Source: Mycobacteriales bacterium (GTDB lineage: Bacteria; Actinomycetota; Actinomycetes; JAFAQI01). Taken from it: a stretch of DNA of 64,000 nucleotides. The stretch lies in contig DATJSI010000085.1 in assembly GCA_035504215.1 (NCBI GenBank), positions 5,984 to 69,983 of the forward strand. The letters run 5' to 3'. A program made the translations under genes and the position numbers. Positions 25,435 through 44,736 of this stretch are shown here, one piece after another (the stretch's first letter is position 1; the number at the start of each line of letters is the position of its first letter). A model generated the notes under the pieces. That model ran no database searches. It was not told the origin of the DNA and saw only the letters and a list, made by a program, of their open reading frames with translations.

Positions 25435-25619
25435 GGTGCGCGGCGTCGCATCGAGTGATCGGCGAGACGAAGCGGACGACACCGTTCACGCATCCGCCAG
25501 AACGCCGACCTCGACCCGAGTTCAGCGAGTGCACGGAGGCCATGGTCGGGTAATGGACCGGGCTACCGCACCGGCTCCCTGTGGAAACGGCGAAGGGCTG
25601 TCTCTGGGCTGAGCTATAG

Positions 25620-25635
25620 TCGAACATGTGTTCGA
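25620..25635. promoter_or_regulatory. LexA (SOS) box, perfect consensus, preceded by TATAGT -10-like hexamer
   Basis: TCGAACATGTGTTCGA at 25620-25635. TATAGT at 25615-25620 overlaps the first base of the box. The GTG start of the DUF222 ORF (25628) lies inside the box. Confidence 0.8.
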
Positions 25636-26998: not shown

Positions 26999-27001
26999 GC
27001 A

Positions 27002-30394: not shown

Positions 30395-31273
30395 GCCGTT
30401 GCCGGTGCGCTGCCAGGGTTGCGTCACGGCCAGCCAGACCAGGAAGACCGCACCCAACACCGAGACCAGCGTCCAGCCGAGCGCGTCGGTGCCGAGCCCG
30501 ACGTACTTCAGCCCCGAGGCGAAGATCACGAAGGTGATCGCCGGCCGGATGTAGCGGTCAGGTGCCCGCGAGGACAGCACCGAGCCGACCAGTACGGCGG
30601 GGACGCTGCCGATGATCAGCGAGGTCGTGACCGCGAACTCGACGTGGCCGAACGCGAGCGCGCCCAGCGCAGCGGCGGTCGTCAGCGGGAGCGCCTGGGT
30701 GAGGTCCGTGCCCACCAGCTGGTTGGCGCCGAGCATCGGGTAGAGGAACAGCAGCAGCACGATCATCAACGAACCCGAGCCGACCGAGGTCATGCCGACG
30801 ACCAGCCCACCGATCATGCCGATCAGGACGGTGCGCGCCGGGTGGACGATGATGTCGCTCACCACGCCTTGGCGCTGCTGACCCGACCGCCGGTCGAGCA
30901 CGAAGCGCAGCACCATCGCGGCGGCGCCGACGAGCAGCGCGGCTCCGAGGATGCGCTCGATGTTCGTCTGGGCGTTGGACGAGTTGCCGAGCTCGTGCAG
31001 GATGAACGCGCCCAGAAACGCCATCGGCACCGAGCCGCTCGACATCAGCGCGACCAGCTTCATGTTGACGGTGCCCTTGCGGTAGTGCACCGCGGCACCC
31101 AGCGGTCGCATGACGACCGCAGCCACCAGGTCGCTCGAGATCGCCTTGAGCGGCTCGACGTTGAACAGCAAGATCAGCATCGGCGTCATGAGCGCGCCGC
31201 CGCCGGCGCCGGTCATGCCCACCAGCAGGCCGACGATGGCACTGCCCAGCACGATGTACGGGTCGACGTGCAT
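30311..31273 (-). CDS. sulfite exporter TauE/SafE family membrane protein
   Basis: ATG at 31273 inside track ORF 30311..31321: MHVDPYIVLGSAIVGLLVGMTGAGGGALMTPMLILLFNVEPLKAISSDL... The non-hydrophobic C-terminal tail overlaps the dnaE2 3' end by 84 nt. Confidence 0.8.
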   Translation of the reverse strand: MHVDPYIVLGSAIVGLLVGMTGAGGGALMTPMLILLFNVEPLKAISSDLVAAVVMRPLGAAVHYRKGTVNMKLVALMSSGSVPMAFLGAFILHELGNSSNAQTNIERILGAALLVGAAAMVLRFVLDRRSGQQRQGVVSDIIVHPARTVLIGMIGGLVVGMTSVGSGSLMIVLLLFLYPMLGANQLVGTDLTQALPLTTAAALGALAFGHVEFAVTTSLIIGSVPAVLVGSVLSSRAPDRYIRPAITFVIFASGLKYVGLGTDALGWTLVSVLGAVFLVWLAVTQPWQRTGNGSTEVASSGPDAELERLDALGHDVDHAF

Positions 31274-31286
31274 CTCGCCTCGCAGA

Positions 31287-31354
31287 CTATTGTTGACCAA
31301 CTTTGTGTAGAACAATAGCACCCGTCAGGGCATTGTCAACCAACTCTGTGTAGA
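31287..31354. repeat. two ~22-nt direct repeats plus an 8-bp inverted repeat in the AT-richer tauE/cspA divergent region
   Basis: R1 TTGTTGACCAACTTTGTGTAGA (31290-31311) and R2 TTGTCAACCAACTCTGTGTAGA (31333-31354). CTATTGTT (31287-31294) and AACAATAG (31311-31318) bracket R1. Confidence 0.5.
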
Positions 31355-31527
31355 TTCCGCGCGGGAGATGGGATTCGGCGGCCGAACCTGTTAGCCTTGA
31401 TCCCGCAGGTCGCAGTTCTCGTTGTGCTTAGCTCGCGGGATCTCCCCGCGGGCATTTTGCTTTTCGCCGAAAAGCACCCGCGGCGGCCGAGTCCCGCTCC
31501 GCGGGGCGTCCCAGCAAGGAAAGTGCG

Positions 31528-31731
31528 ATGGCACAAGGCACGGTCAAGTGGTTCAACTCCGAGAAGGGCTACGGCTTCATCGCTCCGGCGGATGGCAGCC
31601 CGGACGTCTTCGTTCACTTCTCGGCGATCCAGTCTGACGGCTACAAGACGCTCGACGAGGGCGCGACCGTGGAGTTCGACACGACGCAGGGCCAGAAGGG
31701 CCTGCAGGCGGAGAACGTCCGGGTCGTCTGA
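31528..31731 (+). CDS. cspA: cold-shock protein (CspA family)
   Basis: 67 aa: [67 protein letters not shown] (RNP1/RNP2 motifs). AAGGAAAG RBS. Confidence 0.95.
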
Positions 31732-31748
31732 CCCGTCACGGCACTGGC

Positions 31749-31781
31749 GGCGCCGACCGGTCTCCGGTCGGCGCCGTTTGC
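31749..31781 (+). terminator. rho-independent terminator of cspA
   Basis: GGCGCCGACCGG-tctc-CCGGTCGGCGCC (perfect 12-bp stem) followed by GTTTG, 18 nt after the cspA stop. Confidence 0.7.
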
Positions 31782-31908
31782 CGTATTGAGCCGAAAGTCC
31801 GGGCCGGTTGGACCGTTCGGCCGCAGGTCGTAGACCGTTTGCTCAGAGATTTCTCAGTGTTCGGTCCGGGAGTTCAAGCCCTTCAGGTTGAGCACCGACA
31901 CTTCAGCC

Positions 31909-32577
31909 ATGAGCGAGCACCCGAGCGACACCTCGGCCGTCGAACGGCCTCGCCTCGGCGCGATCATGCGCCACCTCGGCCTCAGCATCCTGATGGCCAA
32001 CATCATCCCCAGCGCGCTGTTCTACCTCTGCCTGGTGGCCGGAAATGTGTGGACCGCACTGATCGCCGCCCTGGTCTGGTGCTACGGATCGATGGCCTGG
32101 CGATGGAGCACCCGGCGCCGGGCCTCCGGCCTGTTGCTGCTCACCGTCGTCGGCCTGACCGCGAAGACCGCGTTGGCGCTCGCCAGCCACAGCACGTTCC
32201 TCTACTTCCTGCAGCCGGCGATCACCGACTGGGCAGTCGCGGCGATGTTCCTGCTCTCGCTGAAGACCGCCCGCCCGATCGTCGGCCGGCTGGCCGGTGA
32301 CTTCTTCCCGATGAGCGAGGACGTCGCCTCGCGGCCGCGGATCCAGCGCTTGTTCTGGCAGCTGACGCTGTTCTGGGCGTTCATCTGCCTCGCGAAGGCG
32401 GTGGTGACGGTCTGGCTGCTGGAGTCGCTCCCGCTGGTGACCTTCGTCGCGATGAAGGAAGTCGCCGTCCTTGCCATGATTCTCGTCGGAACGGGTATCA
32501 CGGTCGCAGCGGCCGTGCGGGTCGCCCGGTCCGAGGGGCTGCTGCACGTCGGATTGCCGCTGACGCCTGCTGGGTAG
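31909..32577 (+). CDS. polytopic membrane protein (resembles the VC0807 / septation-protein-A-like family)
   Basis: Track ORF begins at TTG 31888; I preferred ATG 31909. Multiple TM helices (LGLSILMANIIPSALFYLCLVAG, WTALIAALVWCYGSMAW, LLLLTVVGLTAKTALALA...). The family call is tentative. Confidence 0.6.
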   Translation: MSEHPSDTSAVERPRLGAIMRHLGLSILMANIIPSALFYLCLVAGNVWTALIAALVWCYGSMAWRWSTRRRASGLLLLTVVGLTAKTALALASHSTFLYFLQPAITDWAVAAMFLLSLKTARPIVGRLAGDFFPMSEDVASRPRIQRLFWQLTLFWAFICLAKAVVTVWLLESLPLVTFVAMKEVAVLAMILVGTGITVAAAVRVARSEGLLHVGLPLTPAG

Positions 32578-32586
32578 CCTCGGGTC

Positions 32587-34647
32587 GTGGACCCGCGGCC
32601 TGTCGGCGGGCGTGTCGCTGTCAGCGTGATCGTCCCCGTATTCAACCCAGGCTCGTCGATCGAGGTCTGTATCGACTCGTTGCTGGCTCAGAGCCTGCCC
32701 CCTGAACAGTACGAAGTGGTTTTCGTCGACGACGGGTCGACGGACGCTGCACCGGGCCGCCTGGACGAGGTCGCGGATAAGGCTGCCAACGTGCGGGTGT
32801 TCCATGAGCCACCTTCGGGCTGGCCGGGTCGGCCGCGCAACATCGGGATCGACAACGCGGTGGGCGACTACGTCTTCTTCTGCGACCAGGACGACTGGCT
32901 CGCACCCGAAGCATTGGCACGCATGGCTGACTTCGCGGACTCCGCCGGCGCGGACGTTCTCAACGCGAAGACCATCGGCCACCACCGCGCGGTGCCGCGA
33001 AGTCTCTACCGAGAGAACGACACCAACGCGACGTTATGGACGCGTCCGTTGATGTCGAGCCTGTCGCCGCACAAGCTCTTTCGCCGCAGCTTCCTCGACG
33101 AGCACGGCCTGCGGTTCCCGGAGGGCAGGCGCCGGCTCGAGGACCACGTGCTCGTCGTCCGCGCGTACTTTCTCGCCAAACGCATCGCGATCCTCGCCGA
33201 CTACCCGTGCTACCACCATGTCCGCCGACCGGGGGACGCCAACGCTGCCTACAGCGTGCCCGATCCGGCCGCTTACTACGGCTATCTCCGCGAGGTGCTC
33301 GACATCATCGAGGCGCACACCGAGCCCGGACCGGGTCGCGACGTACTGCTCGAGCGTCCCTTCACCCACGAGATGCTCGACTGGCTCAGCCATCCGAGAC
33401 GCGTGGGGGCCGTGTCGCAGGACTACTACGAGCGGCGGTTCCGGGAGGTCCGAAACCTGATGCTCGAGCGGTTCGCCCCCAGCTTCGCCGACCGGCTCGC
33501 CCTGGTGTACCGGGTCCGAGCCGGGCTGGTCCGGGACGACCGGTACGACCGGTTGAAGGACGTGAACACCGCCTTCCGGCGGTTGCACGGCCGGGCCGTG
33601 CTCAGGTCGCTGCGCTGGGACAGCGACCGCTGGCGAGCCGAGATCGAGGCGACGGCGGTCCTCGAGGACGGTACGCCGATCAGCTTTGCCCCGACCGAGG
33701 ACGGCCGGCTGCTCGTCGATCCACGGTTGCTGCCCGCGGATCTGCGTGCGAAGTTCCCGGTCGCGATCGAGCACGGCGTGCTCGCCGGGCAGGCTGAGGT
33801 GGTCGTCGTCGAGCGTGCGTCCCACGAGGAGTGGTTCGTTCCGGCGCAGCTGCAGGCCGAGCTCCGCGAGATTCCGGACCAGCCGGGGTCGAATCGCCAC
33901 GTGGTGATCCGCGGGTCGGCCGAGTTCGACCCCTCGACGCTGGCCGGCGGGCGACCGCTCGCCAACGGGGTATGGGATGTCCTCGTCCGGTTCGTCAGCC
34001 TGGGTGTCGAGCTCAGGGCGCGGCTGGCGTCGGACGCCGAAACCCAGCGCCCGCTGCCGTCGGCGGCGGTGATCGGGCCGAGGCCGGTCACCGTCATCCC
34101 GTACCTGACCGAGGGTCGCAGCACGCTCGCCTTCGATGTCGGGCAGCGGGTGCACACGTTGGTCGAGTCGGTCCTGTCCCGGCCGATCGGCACGGCGGTC
34201 ATCGCACGGGACGAGGTGTGGGCACCCGTCGAGGTGGACGTCGCGCCGCAGGCCTCTCAGCGGTCCTTGAGACTCCAGCTCCGTGGCGGCGACGCCGTGG
34301 TGGGGCGCTGCGAGGCAGCCGTCGTCGCCGGGCCGGACGGAGCCCGACTGCGGATGGGGAGGGTGCCGAAACCGACGTCCGGCGGTACTCGGCTCTCGCA
34401 CGGCGCCGGTCGCTACTCGGTGACCATGCAGTCGCGCGCCCGCGACGAGCCATCGCTGGTAGGCGTCGTCGACATCAACCGGATCGGCCGCATCGTCGCG
34501 GCCGACTTCAGCGCGGCGCAGCGCGCGGCGGTCGTGGCGCTACCCGGCGGGTTCGGCAAGGTCGGGCCGTTCATGCGCGTGGTGAAGGCGATCCGGCGCC
34601 GGGTGGCTCGGCTGAGGCATTCTCGACAGCGCACCATGCCTATGTAA
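32587..34647 (+). CDS. family 2 glycosyltransferase with ~450-aa uncharacterised C-terminal extension
   Basis: N-terminal GT-A motifs: VSVIVPVFNPGSSIEVCIDSLLAQSL...YEVVFVDDGSTD...YVFFCDQDDWL. The rest (aa ~230-686) matches no domain I recognise. Confidence 0.8.
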   Translation: MDPRPVGGRVAVSVIVPVFNPGSSIEVCIDSLLAQSLPPEQYEVVFVDDGSTDAAPGRLDEVADKAANVRVFHEPPSGWPGRPRNIGIDNAVGDYVFFCDQDDWLAPEALARMADFADSAGADVLNAKTIGHHRAVPRSLYRENDTNATLWTRPLMSSLSPHKLFRRSFLDEHGLRFPEGRRRLEDHVLVVRAYFLAKRIAILADYPCYHHVRRPGDANAAYSVPDPAAYYGYLREVLDIIEAHTEPGPGRDVLLERPFTHEMLDWLSHPRRVGAVSQDYYERRFREVRNLMLERFAPSFADRLALVYRVRAGLVRDDRYDRLKDVNTAFRRLHGRAVLRSLRWDSDRWRAEIEATAVLEDGTPISFAPTEDGRLLVDPRLLPADLRAKFPVAIEHGVLAGQAEVVVVERASHEEWFVPAQLQAELREIPDQPGSNRHVVIRGSAEFDPSTLAGGRPLANGVWDVLVRFVSLGVELRARLASDAETQRPLPSAAVIGPRPVTVIPYLTEGRSTLAFDVGQRVHTLVESVLSRPIGTAVIARDEVWAPVEVDVAPQASQRSLRLQLRGGDAVVGRCEAAVVAGPDGARLRMGRVPKPTSGGTRLSHGAGRYSVTMQSRARDEPSLVGVVDINRIGRIVAADFSAAQRAAVVALPGGFGKVGPFMRVVKAIRRRVARLRHSRQRTMPM

Positions 34648-34681
34648 TACGTTGGCACGTCACCTGCGCTGAGGAGGCGTC

Positions 34682-35353
34682 GTGCGAATCGGTGGACGGG
34701 TTCCCGTAGTCCTTGCGGCGGCCGCCGCGCTCACGCTGATCGGAGGGGTGGCCGGCGCCGCGGTCGCCTCCCACTCGTCGTCCGCGAAGGCGTGCGTCAC
34801 GTCGAGTGGCGCGCTGCGGCTTCGATCCGGAGGCAAGTGCGCGACCGGTGAGAAGGCGATCACGCTCGACTCCCGGGGCCCGGCCGGTGCTCGCGGGCCG
34901 CGCGGTCCCCGGGGACCGGCCGGTGCCGACGGCGACGCCGTACGGATCGACTTCAGCCAGACCGATCCCGAAGCCAGCACCGTCACCCATGCACTAGCCA
35001 CGTCCGGGCCGGCGACCCTGATCGCGTCGTGTCAGGGGACCGCGGCGACGACCACGTCACTCGTGCTGACCCTGAACGGCGGGACGGATCCACTCAGCTA
35101 CACCGCATCCGTCGTCTCGAGTCCGGTGGACGACGGCACGACGCCGGCGGCCGCCGTGCTCGACCAAGGGTCGAGCGCATCCCTGACGACCACGTCACTG
35201 CCGACGCTCACCACGACGTCGTCGGTGTCCGACATTGTCACGATCGTCATCGCAGCCCAGAGCGGTGAGCAGATCACCGGAACCCTCGACGTCGAGCTCA
35301 GCACCGCGGACAGCCCGGCTTGCGCGGTCAACGGAACGTTGGCCTCGGCATGA
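34682..35353 (+). CDS. secreted protein with short collagen-like (G-X-Y)7 tract
   Basis: GAGGAGG RBS before GTG 34682. Signal-like N-terminus VPVVLAAAAALTLIGGVAGAAVA. Paired Cys (KACVTSSGALRLRSGGKCATGE), then GPAGARGPRGPRGPAGADGDA (34877-34939). Thr/Ser-rich C-terminal domain. Confidence 0.6.
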   Translation: MRIGGRVPVVLAAAAALTLIGGVAGAAVASHSSSAKACVTSSGALRLRSGGKCATGEKAITLDSRGPAGARGPRGPRGPAGADGDAVRIDFSQTDPEASTVTHALATSGPATLIASCQGTAATTTSLVLTLNGGTDPLSYTASVVSSPVDDGTTPAAAVLDQGSSASLTTTSLPTLTTTSSVSDIVTIVIAAQSGEQITGTLDVELSTADSPACAVNGTLASA

Positions 35354-35385
35354 CGGGGGGCCGGAACGAAGAAAGGGTCCCAACA

Positions 35386-37035
35386 ATGAACACTCGATCC
35401 CGGCGTCGCGCCGCCCTCGCGTCGATCGCCTCGCTGGTCGCGCTCGGTGGCGCCGCGCTGGTTCCGGCGGCTGCACACGCCGACACTTCCTCGACGGTCA
35501 CCGTCGTCGGGACCAGTGATGTCTTCGACTCCGATCTCATGCAGCAGGTGATCAAGCCGGGCTTCGAGAAGGCGTATCCGCAGTACACGTTGAACTACGT
35601 CAGCCAGGGCACCGGTGCGGCCATCAGCTATGCCGAAGCCGGTACGGCGAGCGCGCTGCTCGTCCACGCTGCGTCACTGGAGAACCAGTTCGTGGCGTCG
35701 GGCTACTCCTACGAGCAGTACGGCCGGGCGATCTTCTACGGCGACTACGTCTTGTTGGGGCCGGCATCGGATCCCGCCGGCGTGATGAGCGGCGGCAACC
35801 CTGCGCACAACATCGTGGACGCGTTCCAGAGGATCGCGGCCGCCGGCCAGGACGGAAACGTCAACTACGTCTCGCGCGGCGGCACCCCGGGTACGACCGT
35901 CGAGGAGCACACGATCTGGGGTCTCACCACGGGCGTCACGACCTGCCCGGTCAGCACGGCGAACGGCGGCGGCGCGGTTCCGAACGCGGACAGCAACTGC
36001 GCGTCACCAACGCTGCCGTCGTGGTATCACACGACCGGACTCACGCAGGGCCCGAACGTCGTGAACGCCGACGCATGCAACTACACCGGCGGGAACTGCT
36101 ACGTCCTGACCGACCGTGCGACCTTCCAGTACCTCGAGTCGGAGGGTGCGCTCAGCAACCTGCACGTGGTCGACAACGACCCGAACACCGGGCCGGGTGG
36201 CGCCAATCTGTTGGTGAACTCGTTCCACGCATATGCGATCAACCCCGCGGCGTTCAGCTCCGACCCGAACGTGCACATCAACCTGCAGGGCGCGCTGGCC
36301 TTCCTCGACTGGCTCACCTCGCCCACCGGGCAGACCGCCGTCAACAACTACCAGGCGAACGACCCGGGCGGACGGTCGTTCAAGGAGGATGCGGCCCCCG
36401 CGTTGTCCGCAACCGCCGCCTCGACATCAGTGAAGGGCGGTCACAAGCTGACGATCACCGGGTCGTTGAGTAACAAGGTCCCGGGCACGCCTCCGCTAGC
36501 CGGCGTGCAGGTGACGCTGTCCGCGACTCCGACCGGCGGCAAGGCAGCTCTCGCAGCCACGACAACGACCAGTGCGAGCGGCAAGTTCACGTTCCACTAC
36601 GTGCCGACGGGGACTGCGTCGTACACCGTTTCCAGCCCGCAGATCAGCCAGGTCGAGATCCCGGCGTCGGCGTCCTTCGGCCCGCTGTACGGCGACATCC
36701 TGCAGCCGACCTCGGCGAAGGTTAAGGGCACGATCCATGTCGTCGGCGCGGTGGCGATCTCTTCGGCCAAGGCGCGCAAGGGCGTTGTCACGATCAGGGG
36801 CGGTCTGTCGCCCGCGGTCAGTGGCTCTGGCGCGAAATTGCGCATTTACGCAGGGCATGCCTCGGCGTCCGGCGAGCGGGTGGTCAGGACAGTGGCGCTG
36901 AAGCACGGGGCAAAGCGCTTCACCGTGAAGATCAAGCTCGCACGCGGGAGGACCTGGAAGGTTAGGGTCAAGTACGTGAATGCCGGCGTGATCGTCGCAG
37001 GTTCGTCTGCGACGAAGTCGGTGCACGTGACCTGA
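35386..37035 (+). CDS. TupA-like tungstate/molybdate-family substrate-binding protein with long C-terminal beta-sandwich-like extension
   Basis: ATG 35386 (GAAAGGG RBS). Tat-like signal MNTRSRRRAALASIASLVALGGAALVPAAAHA. PBP core ...VVGTSDVFDSDLMQQVIKPGFEKAYPQYTLNYVSQGTGAAISYAEAGTASALLVHAASLENQFVASGYS...GDYVLLGPASDPAGV...VSRGGTPGTTVEE resembles TupA. A further ~200 aa are repeat-like (…KLTITGSL…VQVTLSATPTGG…GKFTFHYVPTG…). Confidence 0.75.
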   Translation: MNTRSRRRAALASIASLVALGGAALVPAAAHADTSSTVTVVGTSDVFDSDLMQQVIKPGFEKAYPQYTLNYVSQGTGAAISYAEAGTASALLVHAASLENQFVASGYSYEQYGRAIFYGDYVLLGPASDPAGVMSGGNPAHNIVDAFQRIAAAGQDGNVNYVSRGGTPGTTVEEHTIWGLTTGVTTCPVSTANGGGAVPNADSNCASPTLPSWYHTTGLTQGPNVVNADACNYTGGNCYVLTDRATFQYLESEGALSNLHVVDNDPNTGPGGANLLVNSFHAYAINPAAFSSDPNVHINLQGALAFLDWLTSPTGQTAVNNYQANDPGGRSFKEDAAPALSATAASTSVKGGHKLTITGSLSNKVPGTPPLAGVQVTLSATPTGGKAALAATTTTSASGKFTFHYVPTGTASYTVSSPQISQVEIPASASFGPLYGDILQPTSAKVKGTIHVVGAVAISSAKARKGVVTIRGGLSPAVSGSGAKLRIYAGHASASGERVVRTVALKHGAKRFTVKIKLARGRTWKVRVKYVNAGVIVAGSSATKSVHVT

Positions 37036-37037
37036 GC

Positions 37038-38300
37038 ATGCCGCGTACCTTGCTTCGCCGAGCACTGGCGGTGGTGCTGGCGCTCGGCGGGGTGGTCGCC
37101 GTTGCGATGCCTGCTGCGGCCGCGGAGTCCTGCCCGACCGGTGACCCGTGTATCGCGGTCCACCTGCAAGGTGGCACGAAGTACGTGACGGCGACCCAGA
37201 TCACCAGCGAGGCCACGGCGGCGGCAGACGCAGATGCCGCCAACGCGGTTCAGGACGTCCAGTACCCGGAGACGGCAACGGTCGCCGGGCCGTACGTCGC
37301 ACTCGGCCTGTCCGAGAACGCCTTGCTGGCCGACCTGCTCGGCTCGTCCGCCTCGGGGGTGACCTTCACCGAGCTGACCCGTCCCTACGACGGAAGCCAC
37401 TCCTTGCTGCAGGCATCCGCCGGTGACCTGTCCGCACCCTCGAGCTTTGTCGGCGGCTTGCTGCCCGTCTTCTACGTCGACGGCCCGCAGATCCTCTACG
37501 CGCGCCCGATTCGGAGCTCCTCGGACAACGCGGCGGCCGACGACGAGATCGAAAGCGCCCAGGGCGGCCCGCTCGACCTATATGTCCACACCGGCCCGCT
37601 CCTCACGGTGACCGCCTCCGCCGATCCGATGACGGCGAAGGTAGGCCAGTCGATCACCCTCGACGCGTCCAGCAGCGGCGACAGCGTCACGCCGACGTAC
37701 ACGTGGCGGCTGTTCCCGAGCGACCAGAAGATCGGGGTGGGGGCACGGATCACCCATGCCTTCGCCGTCGCGGGCACCTACGAGGTCTTGCTGAGCGCGC
37801 AGGGAGCGGATGACTCCGGCGGCTTCGCCGACCCGCTGTTCGTGACGGTAGGGCACGCGCGGGTGTCGCCATCGCACTCCCCGAGCCCGGGCGGGAGCCG
37901 CACGCCGACCCCGAGCCCGTCGTTGCATCCGAGCAGTACGCCGAGCCCGTCCACGAGTGCTCTGGGCGGGCGGTCCGGTGGGTCTACGCGGTCGCCGAGC
38001 CCTGGAACGAGCGGATCGGGCGTTGCGTCCGGCCGATCAACGCCGCCTCCTAGCAGCCTTGCCGGCCGTCCGGTCGTGAGCGGCCGGTTGATCGGCCAGG
38101 GTGTCGCGCTGCTCAGCGCCCCGAGTGCTCCCGCCGTCGGGACCCAGGCCGAGGGATCGGCGGCCACGCCGCTCTCGTCGGGTTGGCGCGTGAGCTCCGC
38201 TGCGGCGGCGATCGCCGCGATAATGCTGCTGTTCGGCCTGGGGGCGGCACGTGAGCTGCGCTGGGCGAGGCGGCGGAGAAGCGCGGTGAGACAGCATTGA
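37038..38300 (+). CDS. PKD-domain surface protein with Pro/Ser-rich stalk and C-terminal TM anchor
   Basis: Signal peptide (ALAVVLALGGVVAVAMPAAAAE). PKD-like segment VTASADPMTAKVGQSITLDASSSGDSVTPTYTWRLFPSDQKIGVGARITHAFAVAGTYEVLLSAQGADDSG. SPSHSPSPGGSRTPTPSPS linker. C-terminal AAAAIAAIMLLFGLGAA + RELRWARRRR. Confidence 0.7.
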   Translation: MPRTLLRRALAVVLALGGVVAVAMPAAAAESCPTGDPCIAVHLQGGTKYVTATQITSEATAAADADAANAVQDVQYPETATVAGPYVALGLSENALLADLLGSSASGVTFTELTRPYDGSHSLLQASAGDLSAPSSFVGGLLPVFYVDGPQILYARPIRSSSDNAAADDEIESAQGGPLDLYVHTGPLLTVTASADPMTAKVGQSITLDASSSGDSVTPTYTWRLFPSDQKIGVGARITHAFAVAGTYEVLLSAQGADDSGGFADPLFVTVGHARVSPSHSPSPGGSRTPTPSPSLHPSSTPSPSTSALGGRSGGSTRSPSPGTSGSGVASGRSTPPPSSLAGRPVVSGRLIGQGVALLSAPSAPAVGTQAEGSAATPLSSGWRVSSAAAAIAAIMLLFGLGAARELRWARRRRSAVRQH

Positions 38301-38310
38301 GGCCGGCGCC

Positions 38311-38937
38311 GTGACCCATGCCATCGAGCAAGCCATCTTCGACGTCGCGCGCTCGCTCGAGGTGCCGGTTCTCATCCTCGCGCTGATCGCCCTCGCGGGT
38401 GTCATCGTCGAGCTCGGCGGCTTCGCGGTCGAGCTGCGCACTCGCCAGCGGCGCCGCTTCCCGCGGCTCTCGACGGCGGCGGCCGATGCGCAGAAGGCGA
38501 TCGCGGACGGCGACCGGTCCATCGCCAAGACCGCGCTCGGCGCGGTCGCCTGGAGCGGCGCGATGGCAGCGACCTTCGACACGATCGCCGACCAGGCCGG
38601 CGAGCCGGGAGCCGACACGCGAATCGCGAAGGCGCTTGCCGACTTCGACTTCGACTCGCAGCGCCGGCTGGCGCGCACCCGCCTGCTGGTCAGGGCCGGC
38701 CCGGCACTCGGCCTGATGGGCACCCTGATCCCGCTCTCGCCCGCCCTGGAGGGACTGCGCAACGGCAACACCACCGCACTCAGCCAGAACCTGCGGGTGG
38801 CATTCAGTGTGACGGTGCTCGGCCTGCTCATCGGAGCGATCGCGTTTGCCTTGTCGCTGTACCGCGACCGGATGTACGGGCAGGACCTGTCCGACCTCGA
38901 GTACGTCGCGGCCGTTCTCACGGACGAGCGGCGATGA
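38311..38937 (+). CDS. MotA/TolQ/ExbB proton-channel family protein
   Basis: 208 aa with three TM helices. Family-typical core RTRLLVRAGPALGLMGTLIPLSPALEGL...NLRVAFSVTVLGLLIGAIAFALSLY. GTG at 38311. Confidence 0.8.
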   Translation: MTHAIEQAIFDVARSLEVPVLILALIALAGVIVELGGFAVELRTRQRRRFPRLSTAAADAQKAIADGDRSIAKTALGAVAWSGAMAATFDTIADQAGEPGADTRIAKALADFDFDSQRRLARTRLLVRAGPALGLMGTLIPLSPALEGLRNGNTTALSQNLRVAFSVTVLGLLIGAIAFALSLYRDRMYGQDLSDLEYVAAVLTDERR

Positions 38938-39257
38938 TCAAGGTCACGCCGCGTGCGCGGCTGCGCGAGGACCGCGCCGGCGACCCGCTCGACGGGTTGG
39001 TCAACCTCTTCGACCTCGGAATCGTGCTCGCGGTCGCGTTCCTGTTGGCCGCACTTGCCTCGCTCAATCTGACCAAGGCGTTCACCAAGAACGGCCTGCA
39101 TCCGGTCAGCCCGAATACGATCACCATCTCGCCGGGCCAGACCGTGCACACGCTTCCTAGTCCTGGAGCCAAGACGATCGGGCCGGGCGTCAAGGTCGGC
39201 ACGGTGTACCGGTTGCCGTCCGGGAAGCTGGTGTACGTAACCGGCCCGGCGAAGTGA
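38934..39257 (+). CDS. DUF2149-like single-TM protein (ExbD/TolR-like topology)
   Basis: ATGA-coupled to the ExbB-like gene. 107 aa with TM GLVNLFDLGIVLAVAFLLAAL carrying an intramembrane Asp, followed by a small soluble domain ...ITISPGQTVHTLPSPGAKTIGPGVKVGTVYRLPSGKLVYVTG. Confidence 0.65.
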   Translation: MIKVTPRARLREDRAGDPLDGLVNLFDLGIVLAVAFLLAALASLNLTKAFTKNGLHPVSPNTITISPGQTVHTLPSPGAKTIGPGVKVGTVYRLPSGKLVYVTGPAK

Positions 39258-39279
39258 CCGCTCCGCCGGGCAGTGCGCG

Positions 39280-39999
39280 GTGACGTTCATCTGGCGCGGG
39301 TTTCGGCAGGCCTGGCATCTCATCGTCTCGGGCGACCCGAACCTTCGGCACGTCACGTGGGTCACGCTCGAGGTCGCGATCGTCGCCACAGTCGTGGCAG
39401 TCGTGCTCGGGCTGCCGTGCGGCCTTGTCCTCGGCCTCGGCCGGTTCCGCGGCCGCCGGCTCGGCATCGTGCTTGCCAATGCGGGGCTCGGGCTCCCGCC
39501 GGTCATGGTCGGGCTCGTGCTCGCGCTGCTGATGTTCCCGGAGGCACCACTCGGGCGCTTCCATCTCCTGTTCACGTTGCACGGCGTCTACATCGCGCAG
39601 TCGGTCCTGTCGTTCCCAGTCGTCGTGGCACTCAGCTGCTCGGCGCTCAGGGCGGTGCCGGAGGGTCTGCTCGACCAGGCGCGCGCGTTCGATGCGAGCC
39701 GGCGACAGTTATGGGTGCTCGCGCTGCGCGAGGCGCGGGTCGGCGTGCTCACGGCCGTGATCGCGGCAGTCGGGTCGGCGTTGTCCGAGGTCGGCGCCGT
39801 CGTACTCGTCGGTGGCAACATCTACGGCAACGACCAAACCCTCGCCAGCGCAACGATCTTTGCCGTCGACCAGGCTCAGTTTGCTTACGCGATGGCGCTC
39901 GGCATCATCCTGCTCGGCTTGATCCTGGTGGTCGCGGCGGCGCTGACCTTCGTCCAGCAGGGCTCGGCGGCACGCGTCCGTATCCGGCCGCCGTCATGA
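39280..39999 (+). CDS. ABC transporter permease, TupB-like (tungstate/oxyanion)
   Basis: 239 aa. BPD_transp_1-like region with EAA-type loop ...EGLLDQARAFDASRRQLWVLALREARVGVLTAVIAAVGSALSEVGAVVLVGGNI... Confidence 0.8.
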   Translation: MTFIWRGFRQAWHLIVSGDPNLRHVTWVTLEVAIVATVVAVVLGLPCGLVLGLGRFRGRRLGIVLANAGLGLPPVMVGLVLALLMFPEAPLGRFHLLFTLHGVYIAQSVLSFPVVVALSCSALRAVPEGLLDQARAFDASRRQLWVLALREARVGVLTAVIAAVGSALSEVGAVVLVGGNIYGNDQTLASATIFAVDQAQFAYAMALGIILLGLILVVAAALTFVQQGSAARVRIRPPS

Positions 40000-40925
40000 C
40001 CCGATCACAGGTGGTGCTGCGGGTCAGCGGCCTGTCCGTACGCCGCCAGGGCGCCGAAGTCGTGCGCAACGTGAGCCTGGACATCGGTGCCGGCGAGGTC
40101 GTCGCGGTGCTGGGGCCGAACGGAGCGGGAAAGAGCACGCTGCTCGCGGCGATCGCCGGAGTGCTCGCACCGGCGGCCGGCGACGTGCAGCGCAACGGCC
40201 GGATCGCGACCGCGATGCAGTCCCCGGACCTCGCCCGCCGCTCCGCGCTGGCCAACGTCGAGCTGGCCCTTGCGTGGTGGGGCGTCCCGCGGCGTGAGCG
40301 GAGGAGCCGCGCTCACGCGGCGCTGGACGCGATGCAGGCAACGCACCTGGCCGATCGGGCGGCCGCCGCGATGTCAGGTGGCGAGCGGCGGCGGGTGCAC
40401 ATCGCGCGCGCGCTCGCACTGCGCCCCGATCTGCTCGTTCTCGACGAGCCGTTCGCGGGGCTCGACTCGCTGAGCCGCGGCGCGCTGCTCGACGACACCG
40501 CCTCCGTGCTTCGCGACCCGGACCGCGCCGCTCTGATCGTCGTGCACGACCGGTCCGAGGCATGGGCGCTCGCCGACCGGCTCGTCGTCCTGCTCGACGG
40601 CAGAGTCGCCGCGATGGGCCGCCCGAAGGAGGTGCTCGACGCGCCGCCAACGGCGCCGGTGGCTCGCTTTCTCGGCTTCAGCGGCCGGATCCGCCAGGGG
40701 GACGGCTGGCTGCTCACGCGGCCCAGCCACGTGTCCGTCCAACCGGACGGGCCGTTCGCTGCCGTCGTACGCCGCCAGGTGCCGGTCGAGGACGGCGTTC
40801 GGCTCGCGCTCGACGTCGAGGGGGGTGAGCTCTGGACGGTCGTCGCAGAACCCGGTCCGGGTGTGGGTGCCTCCGTGCGCGTGTGCGTCAACGGGGGAGT
40901 ACGTTTCCCCGCCGACGGCGAATAG
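39996..40925 (+). CDS. ABC transporter ATP-binding protein, TupC-like, with C-terminal TOBE-like domain
   Basis: ATG 39996 (ATGA overlap with the permease stop). Walker A GPNGAGKST, signature MSGGERRRVHIARAL, Walker B LLVLDEPFAGLD. ~90-aa C-terminal beta domain. Confidence 0.85.
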   Translation: MTRSQVVLRVSGLSVRRQGAEVVRNVSLDIGAGEVVAVLGPNGAGKSTLLAAIAGVLAPAAGDVQRNGRIATAMQSPDLARRSALANVELALAWWGVPRRERRSRAHAALDAMQATHLADRAAAAMSGGERRRVHIARALALRPDLLVLDEPFAGLDSLSRGALLDDTASVLRDPDRAALIVVHDRSEAWALADRLVVLLDGRVAAMGRPKEVLDAPPTAPVARFLGFSGRIRQGDGWLLTRPSHVSVQPDGPFAAVVRRQVPVEDGVRLALDVEGGELWTVVAEPGPGVGASVRVCVNGGVRFPADGE

Positions 40926-40935
40926 GGTTGGGGAC

Positions 40936-41310
40936 GTGCCCGAGCTGCTGCGCATCGGCGAGGTTTCCAAGGCGCTCGGCGTGAGCATCGACACGTTGCG
41001 CCGGTGGGAGGCGGACGGGCGGGTCAAGTTCGTGCGCCGGGGCAACCAGCGCATGCTGCCGGCCAACCAGCTCGGCAAGCTGCTGCGCTCGCAGGCGGGG
41101 GCGACCAATCGCTCGAGCGCGCGCAACCGGATGAGCGGCATCGTCGTGTCGGTCGACCGCGACGGTGTCATGGCGAAGGTCGAGATGGCGTGCGGCGACT
41201 ACCGCATCGTGTCACTGATGAGCCGGGAGGCGGCCGACGACCTCAAGCTCGAGCCCGGCGTGTTCGCAACCGCTGTCGTCAAGGCCACGAACGTCATCGT
41301 CGATCGCTGA
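40936..41310 (+). CDS. MerR/excisionase-type HTH + TOBE (molybdate/tungstate-sensing) transcriptional regulator
   Basis: GTG 40936 within track ORF 40825..41310. HTH LLRIGEVSKALGVSIDTLRRWEADGRV. TOBE SARNRMSGIVVSVDRDGVMAKVEMACGDYRIVSLMSREAADDLKLEPGVFATAVVKATNVIV. Confidence 0.75.
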   Translation: MPELLRIGEVSKALGVSIDTLRRWEADGRVKFVRRGNQRMLPANQLGKLLRSQAGATNRSSARNRMSGIVVSVDRDGVMAKVEMACGDYRIVSLMSREAADDLKLEPGVFATAVVKATNVIVDR

Positions 41311-41853
41311 CTCGCCGGTCTTCTCGGCAACGGGTGCGGGTCGGTGGGTGACTCGCATGACGAGCACCAGCGCCCCTGAGAGCAACACCAGATCGCCCAC
41401 GCTCAACATGTTCTGGAACGGCAGCCACGACGGCGTGACCATGATGTCGCCGAGCCACGCCAGATGCGGATGGGCAACGACGCCGGAGTTCTGGAAGCCG
41501 ACCCGCGGATGGATGCCCGCTGCGTGCAGTGCCCCTGCCGACGCCGGCAGGGTGCCGTCGTTGACCGTGATCGCGAGCGCGTTGGCGCCGGCTCCCAGTG
41601 CGATCAGCAGCATCCCCGGCAGCCGGCGGTTCGCCCAGACGACGGCAGCGAGCATTCCGTACGACGCGATGTGCGCACCCACCGCGATGCCGTGCGGCAT
41701 CCCGGGCCAGATCGTGATGATGAGGACCTGGACGGCGAGGGCGACCAGCGCCAGCGGAACCCATCGAAGCCGGATCTCGGCCAGCCGGCGCAGGTTGCCG
41801 CCGGTCAGCGGGACCATGACGACGATCAGAAGCGCGCAGAAGCCGAGAAACAT
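41212..41853 (-). CDS. DUF5317-like polytopic membrane protein
   Basis: MFLGFCALLIVVMVPLTGGNLRRLAEIRLRWVPLALVALAVQVLIITIWP...; several TM helices. Its hydrophilic tail overlaps the convergent TOBE-regulator gene by 99 nt, so the true stop context is uncertain. Confidence 0.6.
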   Translation of the reverse strand: MFLGFCALLIVVMVPLTGGNLRRLAEIRLRWVPLALVALAVQVLIITIWPGMPHGIAVGAHIASYGMLAAVVWANRRLPGMLLIALGAGANALAITVNDGTLPASAGALHAAGIHPRVGFQNSGVVAHPHLAWLGDIMVTPSWLPFQNMLSVGDLVLLSGALVLVMRVTHRPAPVAEKTGESAIDDDVRGLDDSGCEHAGLELEVVGRLPAHQ

Positions 41854-41860
41854 CGCTCGC

Positions 41861-43894
41861 TCACAACACCTGGAGCTTCGGCCGGGTGGAGACCACGGTG
41901 GTCTCGTCGCGCTGGTTGAGCCAGGCGTTGAAGGCCTCCGCCGTCAATGGCCGGGCCAACCGGTATCCCTGGATCGAATCGCAGTCGATCGATGCGAGCA
42001 ACGCCCACGCGGCGTCCGACTCGACGCCTTCGGCCGTGACCTCGAGTCCGAAGCGGTGACCGAGGTCGACGATCGCGCGGACCAGGATCTCGTCCTTCGG
42101 GTCCTCGCCGAGGTCGGCCACGAAGGACCGGTCGATCTTGATCTCGTCGACCGGCAGGCTCTTCAGGTAGGCCATCGACGAGTAGCCGGTTCCGAAGTCG
42201 TCGATCGCGATCCGGCATCCGAGCCGGCGCAGGTTGGCCATCTGTCGAAGGTTCTGCTCGCGCTCGCTTACCATGTCGGACTCGGTGAGCTCGAGCGTCA
42301 GCCAGGACGGGTCGACGCCGCTGCGCTGCAGCGCGCTGTGCACCCGCTCGACGAAACGGACGTCGTGCATCGTGCGCGGCGAGACGTTCATCGACAGGCC
42401 GATCTCGCGGCCGGCCCGATGCCAGGCGGAGAGATGGGCAAGAGACTGCTCGAGCAGGGCGTAGGTGAGCGTGTCGAGCATGCCGGCGCCTTCGGCGATG
42501 TCGATGAACTCGTCCGGTGACAGCACGCCCGCGTGCGTATGCCGCCAACGGGCGAGGGCCTCGACGCCGACGACCTGCCCGGTGATCGCGTGACACATCG
42601 GCTGGTAGAGCGGGAAGACCTCGCCGGACTCGATGCCGCGGTGCAGGTCCGCGACGAGCGACAGGCGTTCGACCGAGTGATCGTCCCGTGAGCCGTCGTA
42701 GATCATGATGCTGCCGCGGGCGGACTTCGCGTCGTACAACGCGACGTCGGCACGTTTGAGCAGCAGGTCCTCGTCCGCACCGTCGCGCGGAGCCAGCGCG
42801 ATGCCGACGCTGCACTGCGCCGAGAGATCCGCGCCGGCGAGCGGGAAGGTCTGGTCGAACGCGTCCCGCAACCGCGCCGCGACGTCGATCGCGGCCGCCT
42901 CGCTGTCGACGTGGTAGGCGAGGATGGCGAACTCGTCGCCGCCGAGCCGGGCGATGAAGTCGCCCGCGCGCAGGGCGCCACGCAGCCGGCTCGAGACCTC
43001 GACCAGCAGCCGGTCACCCGCGTAGTGGCCCAGCGTGTCGTTGATCTCCTTGAAGTGGTCGAGGTCGACCAGCATGACCGCAACCGGCACCTGGGCGAGG
43101 TGCTCGCAGGCCTGCTTCAGCCGCATCAGCAACGAGGTGCGGTTCGGCAGCTCGGTCAGCGCGTCGTGCAGCGCCTCGTGCTCGCGCTCGGAGGCCAACC
43201 GCGCACTGCGGTGAACGGCGACCAGCGGCACCATCAGCAACGGCAGAGCGGCGACCGACCATGCGAGTGACTGTGCGACAACCGGTGCCAGTGCAAGCAG
43301 GACACCGTCGGTCGGGATGTGCGACCGGAAGTCGGCGAGGACGAGCCGGCGGATCGGCATGCGGGTCGCAAGCGCGACCGCGATGCCGGTCAGGCCGTTG
43401 TTCAGAACGAAGAAGGCCGCACAGCTCAGCAGGGCGGCCGGAAGCTGGGTGGGTGCGAAAGGCGTCGGATGGCCGAACGCCGACTGGCCGACCATCGCGG
43501 TGAAGACGGTGCGGGTCGCCAGCAGCGCGAGGGTGTACTGCGCGACGTTGAACACCAAGCGGTCCCATGCGCGGCGCTTGCGGGCCTCGTCGACGAACAG
43601 CGCCAGGGCCTGGGCCGCGCAGGCGACACCTGGATCGGTGAGGAACAACAGCGCTACGGCGATGGTGCTTGAAATCGACAGCTCGTCACCGGCGTCGGCG
43701 CCGCGGGAGACGGGGATCGGGCGCAGCTCACCGATCACGAGGAACGCACAGGCAACGACCAGAGCGGGGAGCCGGCTGCCGAGATTGGTCCACGGGACTC
43801 GTGCGCACGACACGGCCAGCAGTGGGATGCCCAGTAGAGAGACCGCGGCCATGTAGGCGCGAAGCCATGATCGCTGGGGTGGTGTCACCGTCAT
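41861..43894 (-). CDS. membrane-anchored GGDEF + EAL (diguanylate cyclase/phosphodiesterase) protein
   Basis: ATG 43894 within track ORF 41861..43993. Polytopic N-terminus. GGDEF motif RLGGDEFAILAY. EAL domain (VGVEALARW...DDFGTGYSSMAYLKSLPVDEIKIDRSFV). Confidence 0.85.
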   Translation of the reverse strand: MTVTPPQRSWLRAYMAAVSLLGIPLLAVSCARVPWTNLGSRLPALVVACAFLVIGELRPIPVSRGADAGDELSISSTIAVALLFLTDPGVACAAQALALFVDEARKRRAWDRLVFNVAQYTLALLATRTVFTAMVGQSAFGHPTPFAPTQLPAALLSCAAFFVLNNGLTGIAVALATRMPIRRLVLADFRSHIPTDGVLLALAPVVAQSLAWSVAALPLLMVPLVAVHRSARLASEREHEALHDALTELPNRTSLLMRLKQACEHLAQVPVAVMLVDLDHFKEINDTLGHYAGDRLLVEVSSRLRGALRAGDFIARLGGDEFAILAYHVDSEAAAIDVAARLRDAFDQTFPLAGADLSAQCSVGIALAPRDGADEDLLLKRADVALYDAKSARGSIMIYDGSRDDHSVERLSLVADLHRGIESGEVFPLYQPMCHAITGQVVGVEALARWRHTHAGVLSPDEFIDIAEGAGMLDTLTYALLEQSLAHLSAWHRAGREIGLSMNVSPRTMHDVRFVERVHSALQRSGVDPSWLTLELTESDMVSEREQNLRQMANLRRLGCRIAIDDFGTGYSSMAYLKSLPVDEIKIDRSFVADLGEDPKDEILVRAIVDLGHRFGLEVTAEGVESDAAWALLASIDCDSIQGYRLARPLTAEAFNAWLNQRDETTVVSTRPKLQVL

Positions 43895-44083
43895 TCCTGC
43901 CCGTGAGAGTGATGGAGTCAGGTGTCCGCGTGGGCGACGGACGACCCGACAGTGCTGTCTAGAACTTGTGGCCGGCCGGGATGGCCGAACCACGAGAACC
44001 GACGCTGTCGGTTCCCTTGGATGTGGTTACCGTGTCCACGGCTAACCCCCTTCTCGTGGTCTGAGTGATGAGGAAGCCGCCGG

Positions 44084-44161
44084 TCAGAACTTCCAGCCGG
44101 CACCGCCCACTGTCACAACCGTCACGACAGCGGTAGCAGCGATGGCCAGCCGGGTGAGCAT
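44084..44161 (-). CDS. possible 25-aa hydrophobic micro-protein
   Basis: My own minus-strand translation: ATG(44161) MLTRLAIAATAVVTVVTVGGAGWKF TGA(44084-44086). It is too short for the ORF track. A purine-rich GGAGAGGGGG lies ~20 nt upstream, which is far for an SD. There is no homology evidence. Confidence 0.2.
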   Translation of the reverse strand: MLTRLAIAATAVVTVVTVGGAGWKF

Positions 44162-44406
44162 GCTACGCACAGATAAAGCACCCCCTCTCCCCGCGCGAGA
44201 TTGGTTTATCAAGAATCGCAACGGTTACTTACGAACGCACTCGCCCATCCGGCGCATTCGGCGGGGCCAATGGCGCAACCGGGGACTCGCCTAGCACATC
44301 CCGCTTCGATACGGCTCGGCCATGACGGTGAAACCCGCGACCGTGACCCACCCGCGAATCCGGCGATCACTCAGGCGAAGGCTGCGGTCGTCCGTGCTGG
44401 TCCTTC

Positions 44407-44616
44407 TCAGTCGACGCCGAGCAAAACCTCGGTCGACTTGATGATTGCGGTGACCCGGCCGCCGGGCGCGAGCGCGAGCTCCTCAACCGCCTGCTTGGTC
44501 ACGGAGGCGGTCACCTGCTGGCCACCATCGAGGTCGACCGTGACGATCGTCATCACGGCACCGACGTCGATCGACGACACCGTGCCGGTGAGCTGGTTGC
44601 GAGCGGACAGGCGCAT
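44407..44616 (-). CDS. mop: molybdopterin/molybdate-binding Mop (single TOBE domain) protein
   Basis: 69 aa: MRLSARNQLTGTVSSIDVGAVMTIVTVDLDGGQQVTASVTKQAVEELALAPGGRVTAIIKSTEVLLGV, a canonical Mop/TOBE sequence. Confidence 0.85.
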   Translation of the reverse strand: MRLSARNQLTGTVSSIDVGAVMTIVTVDLDGGQQVTASVTKQAVEELALAPGGRVTAIIKSTEVLLGVD

Positions 44617-44706
44617 GGCTGCCTCCGGTTGCGGGCGATGCGCCCGAGCGTAGACGGCCGCGTCTGACCTGCGCGGAGGACGCCCGGCGGGCGTTCGGAC
44701 CTACGG

Positions 44707-44731
44707 CCCTATCGGGTTGGTGCCGATAGGG
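44707..44731. promoter_or_regulatory. 9-bp perfect palindrome with 7-nt spacer (operator or SD-occluding hairpin)
   Basis: CCCTATCGG-gttggtg-CCGATAGGG at 44707-44731, in the mop/CHASE-GGDEF-EAL divergent region. The right arm overlaps the GGGAAG purine tract 6 nt before ATG 44737. Confidence 0.4.
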
Positions 44732-44736
44732 AAGAA

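Follow-up and report, generated by a model that had tools for sequence, protein, structure and literature searches.

The DNA considered here is a window of 64,000 nucleotides (nt) from a Mycobacteriales bacterium, a soil actinobacterium (assembly GCA_035504215.1, contig DATJSI010000085.1, positions 5,984 to 69,983 of the forward strand). At 35386-41310 on its + strand lie seven open reading frames (ORFs), all in the same direction, that encode two kinds of membrane machinery. The outer genes specify an ATP-binding cassette (ABC) importer related to the Tup oxyanion transporters, together with a regulator. Flanked by the genes for the binding protein and the permease, three further genes encode a surface protein with a PKD domain, a MotA/TolQ/ExbB-family protein with three transmembrane (TM) helices, and a small DUF2149 protein (Table 1). 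The cluster is best viewed as an uptake system composed of two modules, of which one is an oxyanion ABC importer of the Tup-like kind and the other a three-gene motor. None of the ORFs has an internal stop, and their G+C content at third codon positions is 0.85-0.94, in a window with a G+C content of about 70% throughout. The gaps between them are, in order, 2, 10, -4, 22, -4, and 10 nt. Both negative values are ATGA overlaps of stop and start codons, one joining the MotA-like gene to the DUF2149 gene and the other the permease gene to the ATPase gene. Families were assigned by Pfam and NCBIfam profile searches of the ORF translations. A preliminary description of the window counted eight ORFs in this stretch, but six gaps join seven; the eighth same-strand ORF is that of a collagen-like protein, 32 nt upstream of the binding-protein gene. 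The same description gave gap lengths that are reproduced exactly and a list of families that Pfam and NCBIfam support at every entry, MotA/ExbB and DUF2149 included.

Table 1. The gene cluster and its neighbors in the window, with ratios of nonsynonymous to synonymous substitution (dN/dS) for the seven clustered genes
Product	Position	Strand	Length (aa)	Family or domain	dN/dS
TupA-related substrate-binding protein	35386-37035	+	549	PBP_like_2	0.23
PKD surface protein with C-terminal membrane anchor	37038-38300	+	420	PKD_4	0.32
MotA/TolQ/ExbB-family 3-TM protein	38311-38937	+	208	PF01618	0.13
DUF2149 protein	38934-39257	+	107	PF09919	0.075
ABC importer permease	39280-39999	+	239	BPD_transp_1; nearest TupB, then ModB	0.15
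ABC transporter ATP-binding protein	39996-40925	+	309	ABC_tran	0.31
MerR-type helix-turn-helix + TOBE (Mop) regulator	40936-41310	+	124	TOBE, MerR	0.08
Stand-alone Mop/TOBE protein (molbindin-type)	44407-44616	-	69	TOBE, Mop	
Collagen-like secreted protein	34682-35353	+	223		
TarS-like family-2 glycosyltransferase	32587-34647	+		GT2, TarS linker domain	
ImuB-like protein	23857-25434	+		IMS family	
DUF222 protein	25628-26998	+		DUF222	
DnaE2-like polymerase III alpha	27002-30394	+			
DUF5317 membrane protein	41212-41853	-		DUF5317	
GGDEF-EAL protein	41861-43993	-		GGDEF, EAL	
CHASE-PAS-GGDEF-EAL protein	44737-47637	+		CHASE, PAS, GGDEF, EAL	
PAS-GGDEF protein	47490-48983	-		PAS, GGDEF	

Is this arrangement peculiar to one genome? 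Relatives of the DUF2149 protein number more than 5,000 at 90% clustering and form 284 clusters at 50%. With one genome per species, at least 400 genomes contain a DUF2149 relative; the figures below come from the 80 closest and hold for this clade, not for the family at large. All 80 are Actinomycetota, mostly Solirubrobacterales, with Nocardioides, Aeromicrobium, Frondihabitans, Mycobacteriales, and Frankiaceae also represented. The nearest are metagenome-assembled genomes (MAGs) of an uncultured member of the Actinomycetota (95% identity) and of a member of the Frankiaceae (92%). Loci, designated here by L numbers, were compared by searching six-frame ORFs with the window proteins, and 67 of the 80 have enough flanking sequence for this purpose. 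The MotA-like gene adjoins the DUF2149 gene in 80/80 loci. The motor, the binding protein, the permease or permeases, and the ATPase are all encoded within about 6 kb in 61 of the 67 species genomes (91%), and the lineages with the full set include Solirubrobacterales, Nocardioides, Frondihabitans, Mycobacteriales, and Frankiaceae. As in the window, the motor usually has the binding-protein gene on one side and the permease gene on the other, and the association survives altered gene order in three loci (L021, L048, and L088). The same block also appears in independent, Pfam-labelled gene calls on metagenome contigs. The layout is not due to chance, and the association with Tup-like ABC genes, a point that the preliminary description had proposed to check in other genomes, is strong.

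Two further features of these loci help to define the system. The triad of PKD, MotA-like, and DUF2149 genes stands without adjacent ABC genes in three species of Aeromicrobium (L019, L022, and L044) and in L056 and L064, while L082 has the MotA-like/DUF2149 pair alone. Since, L082 excepted, loss of the neighboring ABC genes leaves the PKD gene in place next to the pair, the core unit is taken to be the trio. The other feature is selection. The dN/dS values in Table 1 were calculated against the closest relative (L011 for the MotA-like gene), at a dS of about 0.7-0.8. Purifying selection on the motor genes MotA-like and DUF2149 equals or exceeds that on the permease gene, and they are no decaying remnants.

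How closely do the motor proteins resemble those of known motors? The MotA-like protein matches PF01618 (MotA_ExbB) at 32.7 bits against a cut-off of 22.9 (E 7e-8). Its hydropathy profile gives a hydrophobic TM1, an 85-aa cytoplasmic loop starting RTRQRRRF, then TM2, rich in Pro and Gly, and TM3, again hydrophobic, in keeping with the three-helix MotA/TolQ/ExbB family to which it was first ascribed. Its conserved core reads RTRLLVRAGPALGLMGTLIPLSPAL. In hhalign, ExbB T148 and T181 are matched by the Thr of GLMGT and the Thr of SVTV, respectively (GLMGT with GLFGT, SVTV with LATA). Both positions are conserved in 74 homologues; the hhalign match to ExbB/TolQ is weak (45 columns, E 0.024), and a PDB sequence search returned weak MotA matches only (8gqy).

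The DUF2149 protein scores 53.8 bits against PF09919, for which the cut-off is 27.1. It consists of an Arg-rich cytoplasmic N terminus, a conserved GDPLDGLVNLFD motif leading into a single TM helix (residues 28-46) with the acidic residue D27 near its inner end, and an outer part of about 60 residues that ends in a conserved G.G..VG.VYRL..G.LVYV beta-hairpin. D27 is invariant in the actinobacterial clade, and across the wider family 137 of the 142 representatives have Asp at this position; N24 is almost invariant. Does this make the protein an ExbD? A profile comparison with ExbD/TolR aligns the helix only and places D27 on ExbD D25 (21 columns, 14% probability), where the preliminary description had located it. 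No match to the ExbD/TolR family PF02472 was found in Pfam at E <= 0.01, PF09919 being the only family returned, and a PDB sequence search with the protein found no relatives. In a structure model with a mean predicted local distance difference test score (pLDDT) of 65.7, the helix alone is confident. "ExbD-like," the name originally given to the whole protein, thus applies to the membrane helix and its Asp alone, while the outer part is a low-confidence model. A search for natural fusions of DUF2149 to a permease or partner gave one in which it is joined to MotA, and which may be a frameshift, but no other informative case. In one Solirubrobacterales genome (L018), the Tup-linked DUF2149 gene is followed about 7 kb downstream by another (17031-17348).

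The third member of the trio is a type-I anchored surface protein. Its order of parts is a signal peptide, a conserved N-terminal domain, the PKD domain (PKD_4, E 7e-7 in Pfam), a linker of about 100 aa that is 65% Pro/Ser/Thr/Gly, a juxtamembrane motif (GRLIG..VALL), a C-terminal TM helix (385-403), and a short cytoplasmic motif (GAARELRW), both motifs being conserved. A homologue search with this protein was swamped by low-complexity words and yielded 12 matches only. The ORFs upstream of the motor pair were compared by their layout, using the 69 that exceed 250 aa out of the 80 loci. A linker rich in Pro, Ser, Thr, and Gly is present in 55 of these 69 partners, and 61 have a Glu no more than four residues past the last hydrophobic stretch, typically in the sequence LGAGRELRGRR. 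No description of a surface partner of this kind, with linker, C-terminal anchor, and conserved Glu, was found in the literature. Ubiquitin-like repeats were considered as the fold of the N-terminal domain and rejected; the top Foldseek matches reached only E 0.14 and are not trusted.

What does the importer module consist of? The binding protein matches PBP_like_2 (9e-15) and, in an immunoglobulin (Ig)-like C-terminal tail, CarboxypepD_reg (3e-8; both Pfam). Its best solved relatives in the PDB are the TupA structures 3lr1, 3muq, and 5my5. Because it scores 65 bits against the TupA equivalog model, whose cut-off is 400, it is assigned by sequence to a distinct TupA-related subfamily. Where TupA has TTTS, the motif with which it binds its oxyanion, 49 of 52 homologues of this protein share a conserved GTSD; the homologues also carry an insertion with four conserved Cys residues. 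A conserved SRGGTPGT segment holds the equivalents of TupA R118 and T124. The protein has an Arg-rich signal peptide containing RR, with no lipobox and no membrane anchor. Among 49 homologues a lipobox occurs in 3 and a C-terminal TM helix in none. Having neither, these binding proteins are in need of a tether. The permease exceeds the cut-off of NF038017 (175 bits). TupB is its best specific model at 127 bits, below the cut-off of 320, and ModB follows at 92 bits; related loci have one permease gene or, in many cases, two. The ATPase is a plain ABC_tran match (2.5e-29). To call this a TupABC-type importer, as was done at the outset, is right insofar as TupA and TupB are the nearest families, but both scores are far below the equivalog cut-offs and the binding motif has changed. 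Set beside a typical TupABC system, then, it shares the structural relatives, the permease model, R118/T124, and nearby TOBE/Mop genes, and it differs in the motif, the four-Cys insertion, the Ig-like tail, the lack of a lipoprotein signal, the frequently doubled permease, and the three inserted motor genes.

The regulatory genes bear on the substrate. The last gene of the cluster encodes a protein with TOBE (2e-12) and MerR (3e-9) domains, and its Mop domain scores 55.6 bits against a cut-off of 55. From its domains it is likely to be a molybdate/tungstate-responsive regulator of the operon, and 33 of the 67 related genomes have a homologue, on either strand, no more than 7 kb from the motor. 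About 3 kb downstream, on the opposite strand, is the stand-alone Mop protein (TOBE, 3e-19; Mop, 81 bits against 55), which probably belongs to the same Mo/W regulon; a homologue is found near the cluster in L005, L008, L010, L011, L029, L046, and L085. Because TupA and TupB are the nearest relatives, the regulator has a TOBE domain, and Mop genes are nearby in several lineages, molybdate or tungstate is the likely substrate. Given the GTSD motif and the subthreshold scores, the ligand could instead be some other oxyanion, or a complex of one.

The MotA-like/DUF2149 pair itself is not new. It is known as HmuU/HmuV of the Bacteroidota hmuYRSTUV operon, where it stands beside the CobN-like de-chelatase HmuS. 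In hmu, in BtuS-type CobN clusters, and in the present operon alike, a MotA/TolQ/ExbB-family gene is directly followed by a DUF2149 gene, the motifs GP.LGLMGTLIP and DP..G..NLFD are common to Hmu and this clade, and both kinds of operon serve the acquisition of a scarce metal. The differences lie in the company that the pair keeps. Hmu/Btu clusters have a CobN-like (de)chelatase, usually the polytopic HmuT, and often a TonB-dependent receptor; CobN-like, HmuT-like, or receptor genes are found in 0 of the 80 actinobacterial loci, which have the Tup-like ABC importer and the PKD protein that Hmu lacks. The hosts differ too, being presumably single-membrane Actinomycetota here and Bacteroidota in the case of Hmu. 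The same gene pair is known in methanogens, where COG4744/arCOG03208 (DUF2149) is annotated as "linked to TolQ" (PMC9425974); this is an annotation note alone, with no function, partner, or ABC link.

A scan of metagenomes with distant DUF2149 seeds gave 53 loci of at least 6 kb. The DUF2149 gene has a MotA-like neighbor in 52 of the 53, a CobN-like one in 50, an HmuT-like one in 39, and a TonB-dependent receptor in 16; genes for a Tup-like permease or binding protein, for a PKD protein, or for a TOBE regulator adjoin it in 0/53. Within this set, twelve loci have the pair beside a CobN-like gene with no TonB-dependent receptor or HmuT-like gene detected (L096, L099, L102, L103, L113, L137, L143, L144, L152, L156, L158, and L159). 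They fit poorly with the published idea that HmuU/HmuV energize HmuR and point to the CobN-like protein as the partner. In one locus with a CobN/cobalamin-synthesis context, L091 (4906-5448), the first 80 or so residues of a 180-aa DUF2149 protein, TM helix included, are exactly duplicated in tandem, a duplication that is either real or an assembly artifact. A second actinobacterial subfamily (L092, 6084-9570; L093, 8001-9555) has a MotA-like protein of 322 aa and a DUF2149 protein of about 190 aa with a Pro/Thr-rich tail. It adjoins glycosyltransferase genes, with no adjacent ABC genes, and the membrane Asp is replaced in 16 of its 118 members. The 640-aa upstream partner in L092 has a different ectodomain but the same layout, starting with a signal peptide and ending with a low-complexity linker and an anchor at the C terminus. 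The signature GP.LGLMGTLIP..PAL is common to the MotA-like proteins from each of the three contexts. The pair thus appears as a portable motor with varied extracytoplasmic clients, of which the nameable ones handle metals. The initial interpretation, a stator dedicated to oxyanion import, withstands the computational checks set for it and is partly supported. Within this clade the pair goes with the importer genes (61/67), but it is not specific to them, being also HmuU/HmuV and, in the distant loci, a neighbor of CobN; a dependence on proton motive force and an action on the surface proteins encoded upstream are conjecture.

Should the operon be counted among the Ton or Tol systems? The likeness is in the outline: two Thr residues face the pore in a 3-TM protein of the ExbB family, its partner crosses the membrane once and has there an Asp that aligns with ExbD D25, and the last component combines a single TM helix with a flexible linker that reaches far outward. 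The operon is Ton-like to this extent and no member of the Ton system, because it shows no PF02472 match for an ExbD/TolR periplasmic domain and, in any cluster protein, no TonB_C or TolA domain, because its third protein is anchored at the C terminus, the reverse of TonB, and because there is no TonB-dependent receptor match in the 80 loci and presumably no outer membrane. Its client would also be of another kind, the binding protein of an ABC importer. A full-text search of the literature found no paper linking ExbB-type proteins with Tup/Mod importers or PKD partners in Actinomycetota. The first description knew of no characterized example. The literature search agrees for the union with an ABC importer; the pair was already known, though uncharacterized. 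What is new in the operon is that this pair is found in a conserved combination with an ABC importer, and in bacteria presumed to have a single membrane.

How might such a partnership work? In the solved ExbB-ExbD, TolQ-TolR, and MotA-MotB complexes, a 5:2 assembly is established in which the passage of protons by an Asp drives movement, and ExbB/ExbD-type motors are understood as carrying energy to the outer membrane. By analogy, the ExbB-like and DUF2149 proteins would form a 5:2-type stator, and proton flow past D27, facing the conserved Thr residues of TM2 and TM3 of the ExbB-like protein, would produce movement. This would be passed to the anchor of the PKD protein, the helix of which has the conserved Glu at its inner end. 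The PKD protein would serve as a TonB-like arm that holds or tugs the unanchored binding protein, so that the loaded binding protein would be delivered to the permease or forced to release a very tightly held ligand. ATP hydrolysis would then carry the oxyanion across the membrane. That a TonB-like, proton-driven module moves the PKD anchor, and that the PKD arm holds or pulls the binding protein, has in our estimation a probability of about 45%. The analysis itself shows the gene families, their conserved grouping, purifying selection, and the conserved motifs; it is from sequence and analogy that we infer the 5:2 assembly, the proton coupling, the contacts with the PKD and binding proteins, and the substrate.

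Several observations tell against this mechanism. The profile similarity to both ExbB and ExbD is weak, and the outer part of the DUF2149 protein, about 60 residues where ExbD/TolR have a folded alpha/beta domain of about 90, is modelled as three short strands (pLDDT 50-70) with no ExbD fold seen at this low confidence. The orientation of the PKD protein in the membrane is opposite to that of TonB, it has no TonB_C domain, and the model of its N-terminal domain (pLDDT 62, from an 11-sequence alignment) has no Foldseek match at E <= 0.001. The binding-site motif is unlike that of TupA, making the ligand uncertain, and six genomes have the motor without adjacent ABC genes. To our knowledge, ABC importers have no need for a second energy source. 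Finally, no experiment on any member of the pair, HmuU/HmuV included, was found in the literature.

What else could the motor be doing? It might drive the exchange of metals between ligands outside the cytoplasm, acting on the CobN-like (de)chelatase in hmu and btu clusters and, in the present operon, on the binding protein, either by stripping Mo or W from organic or mineral complexes or by forcing release of an extremely tightly bound oxyanion. Outside the membrane, where there is no ATP, the motor would do for these partners the work that AAA+ proteins do for cytoplasmic class I chelatases. No energy source has been assigned to the de-chelatase HmuS (PMC12583661), and the pair stands beside a CobN-like gene in nearly all of the distant loci, the twelve with no detected receptor or HmuT-like gene among them. 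The pair of the window, for its part, is next to a binding protein of a high-affinity type, and both types of partner handle metals outside the cytoplasm. This account does not explain why a PKD protein with linker and anchor is so constant a companion, the cluster encodes no chelatase-like domain, and unloading of the binding protein is not known to take extra work; we consider it unlikely, if still worth serious attention. A distinctly more improbable idea is that the PKD, MotA-like, and DUF2149 proteins are an independent envelope module, comparable to Tol or Gld and concerned with wall or surface maintenance, secretion, or motility, that merely shares an operon with the importer. The loci with the triad or the pair and no adjacent ABC genes would suit it, as would the second actinobacterial subfamily with its glycosyltransferases. 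It does not explain why the motor usually sits between the binding-protein and permease genes, or why the association is so widely kept even after changes in gene order, and every sampled context with a nameable function is one of extracytoplasmic metal handling.

The trio could also be imagined to sense rather than to work, relaying membrane energization or the ligand occupancy of the surface proteins to a signalling pathway or gating the importer, much as in surface signalling through TonB and with no work done on the substrate. The short conserved cytoplasmic motif of the PKD protein (RELRW), the adjacent regulator gene, and the cyclic di-GMP (c-di-GMP) genes nearby in the window and its closest relatives could be cited for this. 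The conserved block encodes no sigma or anti-sigma factor and no kinase domain, however, and the c-di-GMP genes are not kept beside the cluster in related loci with listed neighbors, which leaves a sensor very improbable. Hardly credible is a vestigial, nonfunctional Ton remnant in a single-membrane lineage. A recent survey does call incomplete Ton systems in Actinobacteria "likely non-functional" (PMC12204202), and a TonB_C domain and a TonB-dependent receptor are indeed missing. A remnant would not be expected to show strong purifying selection, translational coupling through an ATGA overlap, and intact reading frames with conserved motifs across at least 80 species genomes.

The preferred account, in which proton flow through the motor moves the PKD arm, can be widened, doubtful as the wider version is. 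DUF2149 motors in general might use protons to act mechanically on proteins that handle metals beyond the cytoplasmic membrane, with no outer membrane needed; the trio would energize capture or hand-over by the binding protein, and HmuU/HmuV would serve HmuS and not HmuR. Why does this matter? A motor of the type that the survey dismissed in Actinobacteria is here conserved, under selection, and inside an ABC importer operon. If the coupling is real, soil bacteria have a new route for scavenging trace metals, in which proton motive force acts on a secreted binding protein, and the trio would be the first ExbB/ExbD-type force transducer to serve an ABC importer in a single-membrane cell. The widespread DUF2149 family, including HmuV in heme-iron acquisition by gut and oral Bacteroidota, would gain a testable role. 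Frondihabitans sp. PhB188 (L053), listed as an isolate, has the full cluster, and with this cultured carrier genetic tests may be possible.

As for transcription, a simple consensus scan of 34000-42000 gave a single terminator-like site, which is on the minus strand, and none on the + strand. The preliminary description had allowed that the pair might be transcribed separately; the scan is consistent with a single transcription unit and, being a simple one, goes no further than that. Promoter-like sites were absent from the consensus scan, which is better suited to low-GC sigma-70 promoters, and no match to a molybdenum cofactor or other riboswitch was found in Rfam within 30000-46000. Inverted repeats resembling operators were noted upstream and discarded as uninformative, all of them lying inside the GC-rich coding region of the collagen-like protein. 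This protein is built of a short GPRGPRGPAG repeat, the DNA of which yields several palindromes, and its gene is kept at that position in the nearest relatives only (L008, L009, L011, L013, and L017). A reading of the cluster as anti-phage defense was dropped; none of the four proteins tested matched a PADLOC model, those for Zorya ZorA/ZorB included.

The wider neighborhood contains three further sets of genes. At 23857-30394 on the + strand is a damage-inducible, mutasome-type cassette, in which the DUF222 gene separates the ImuB-like and DnaE2-like genes. The TarS-like glycosyltransferase gene, directly upstream and retained there in L008 and L009, encodes an enzyme that may modify wall polymers or Pro/Ser/Thr-rich surface proteins. 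Downstream of the operon, c-di-GMP genes are densely packed at 41212-48983, and the DUF5317 and GGDEF-EAL genes keep their position in the closest relatives (L008-L010).

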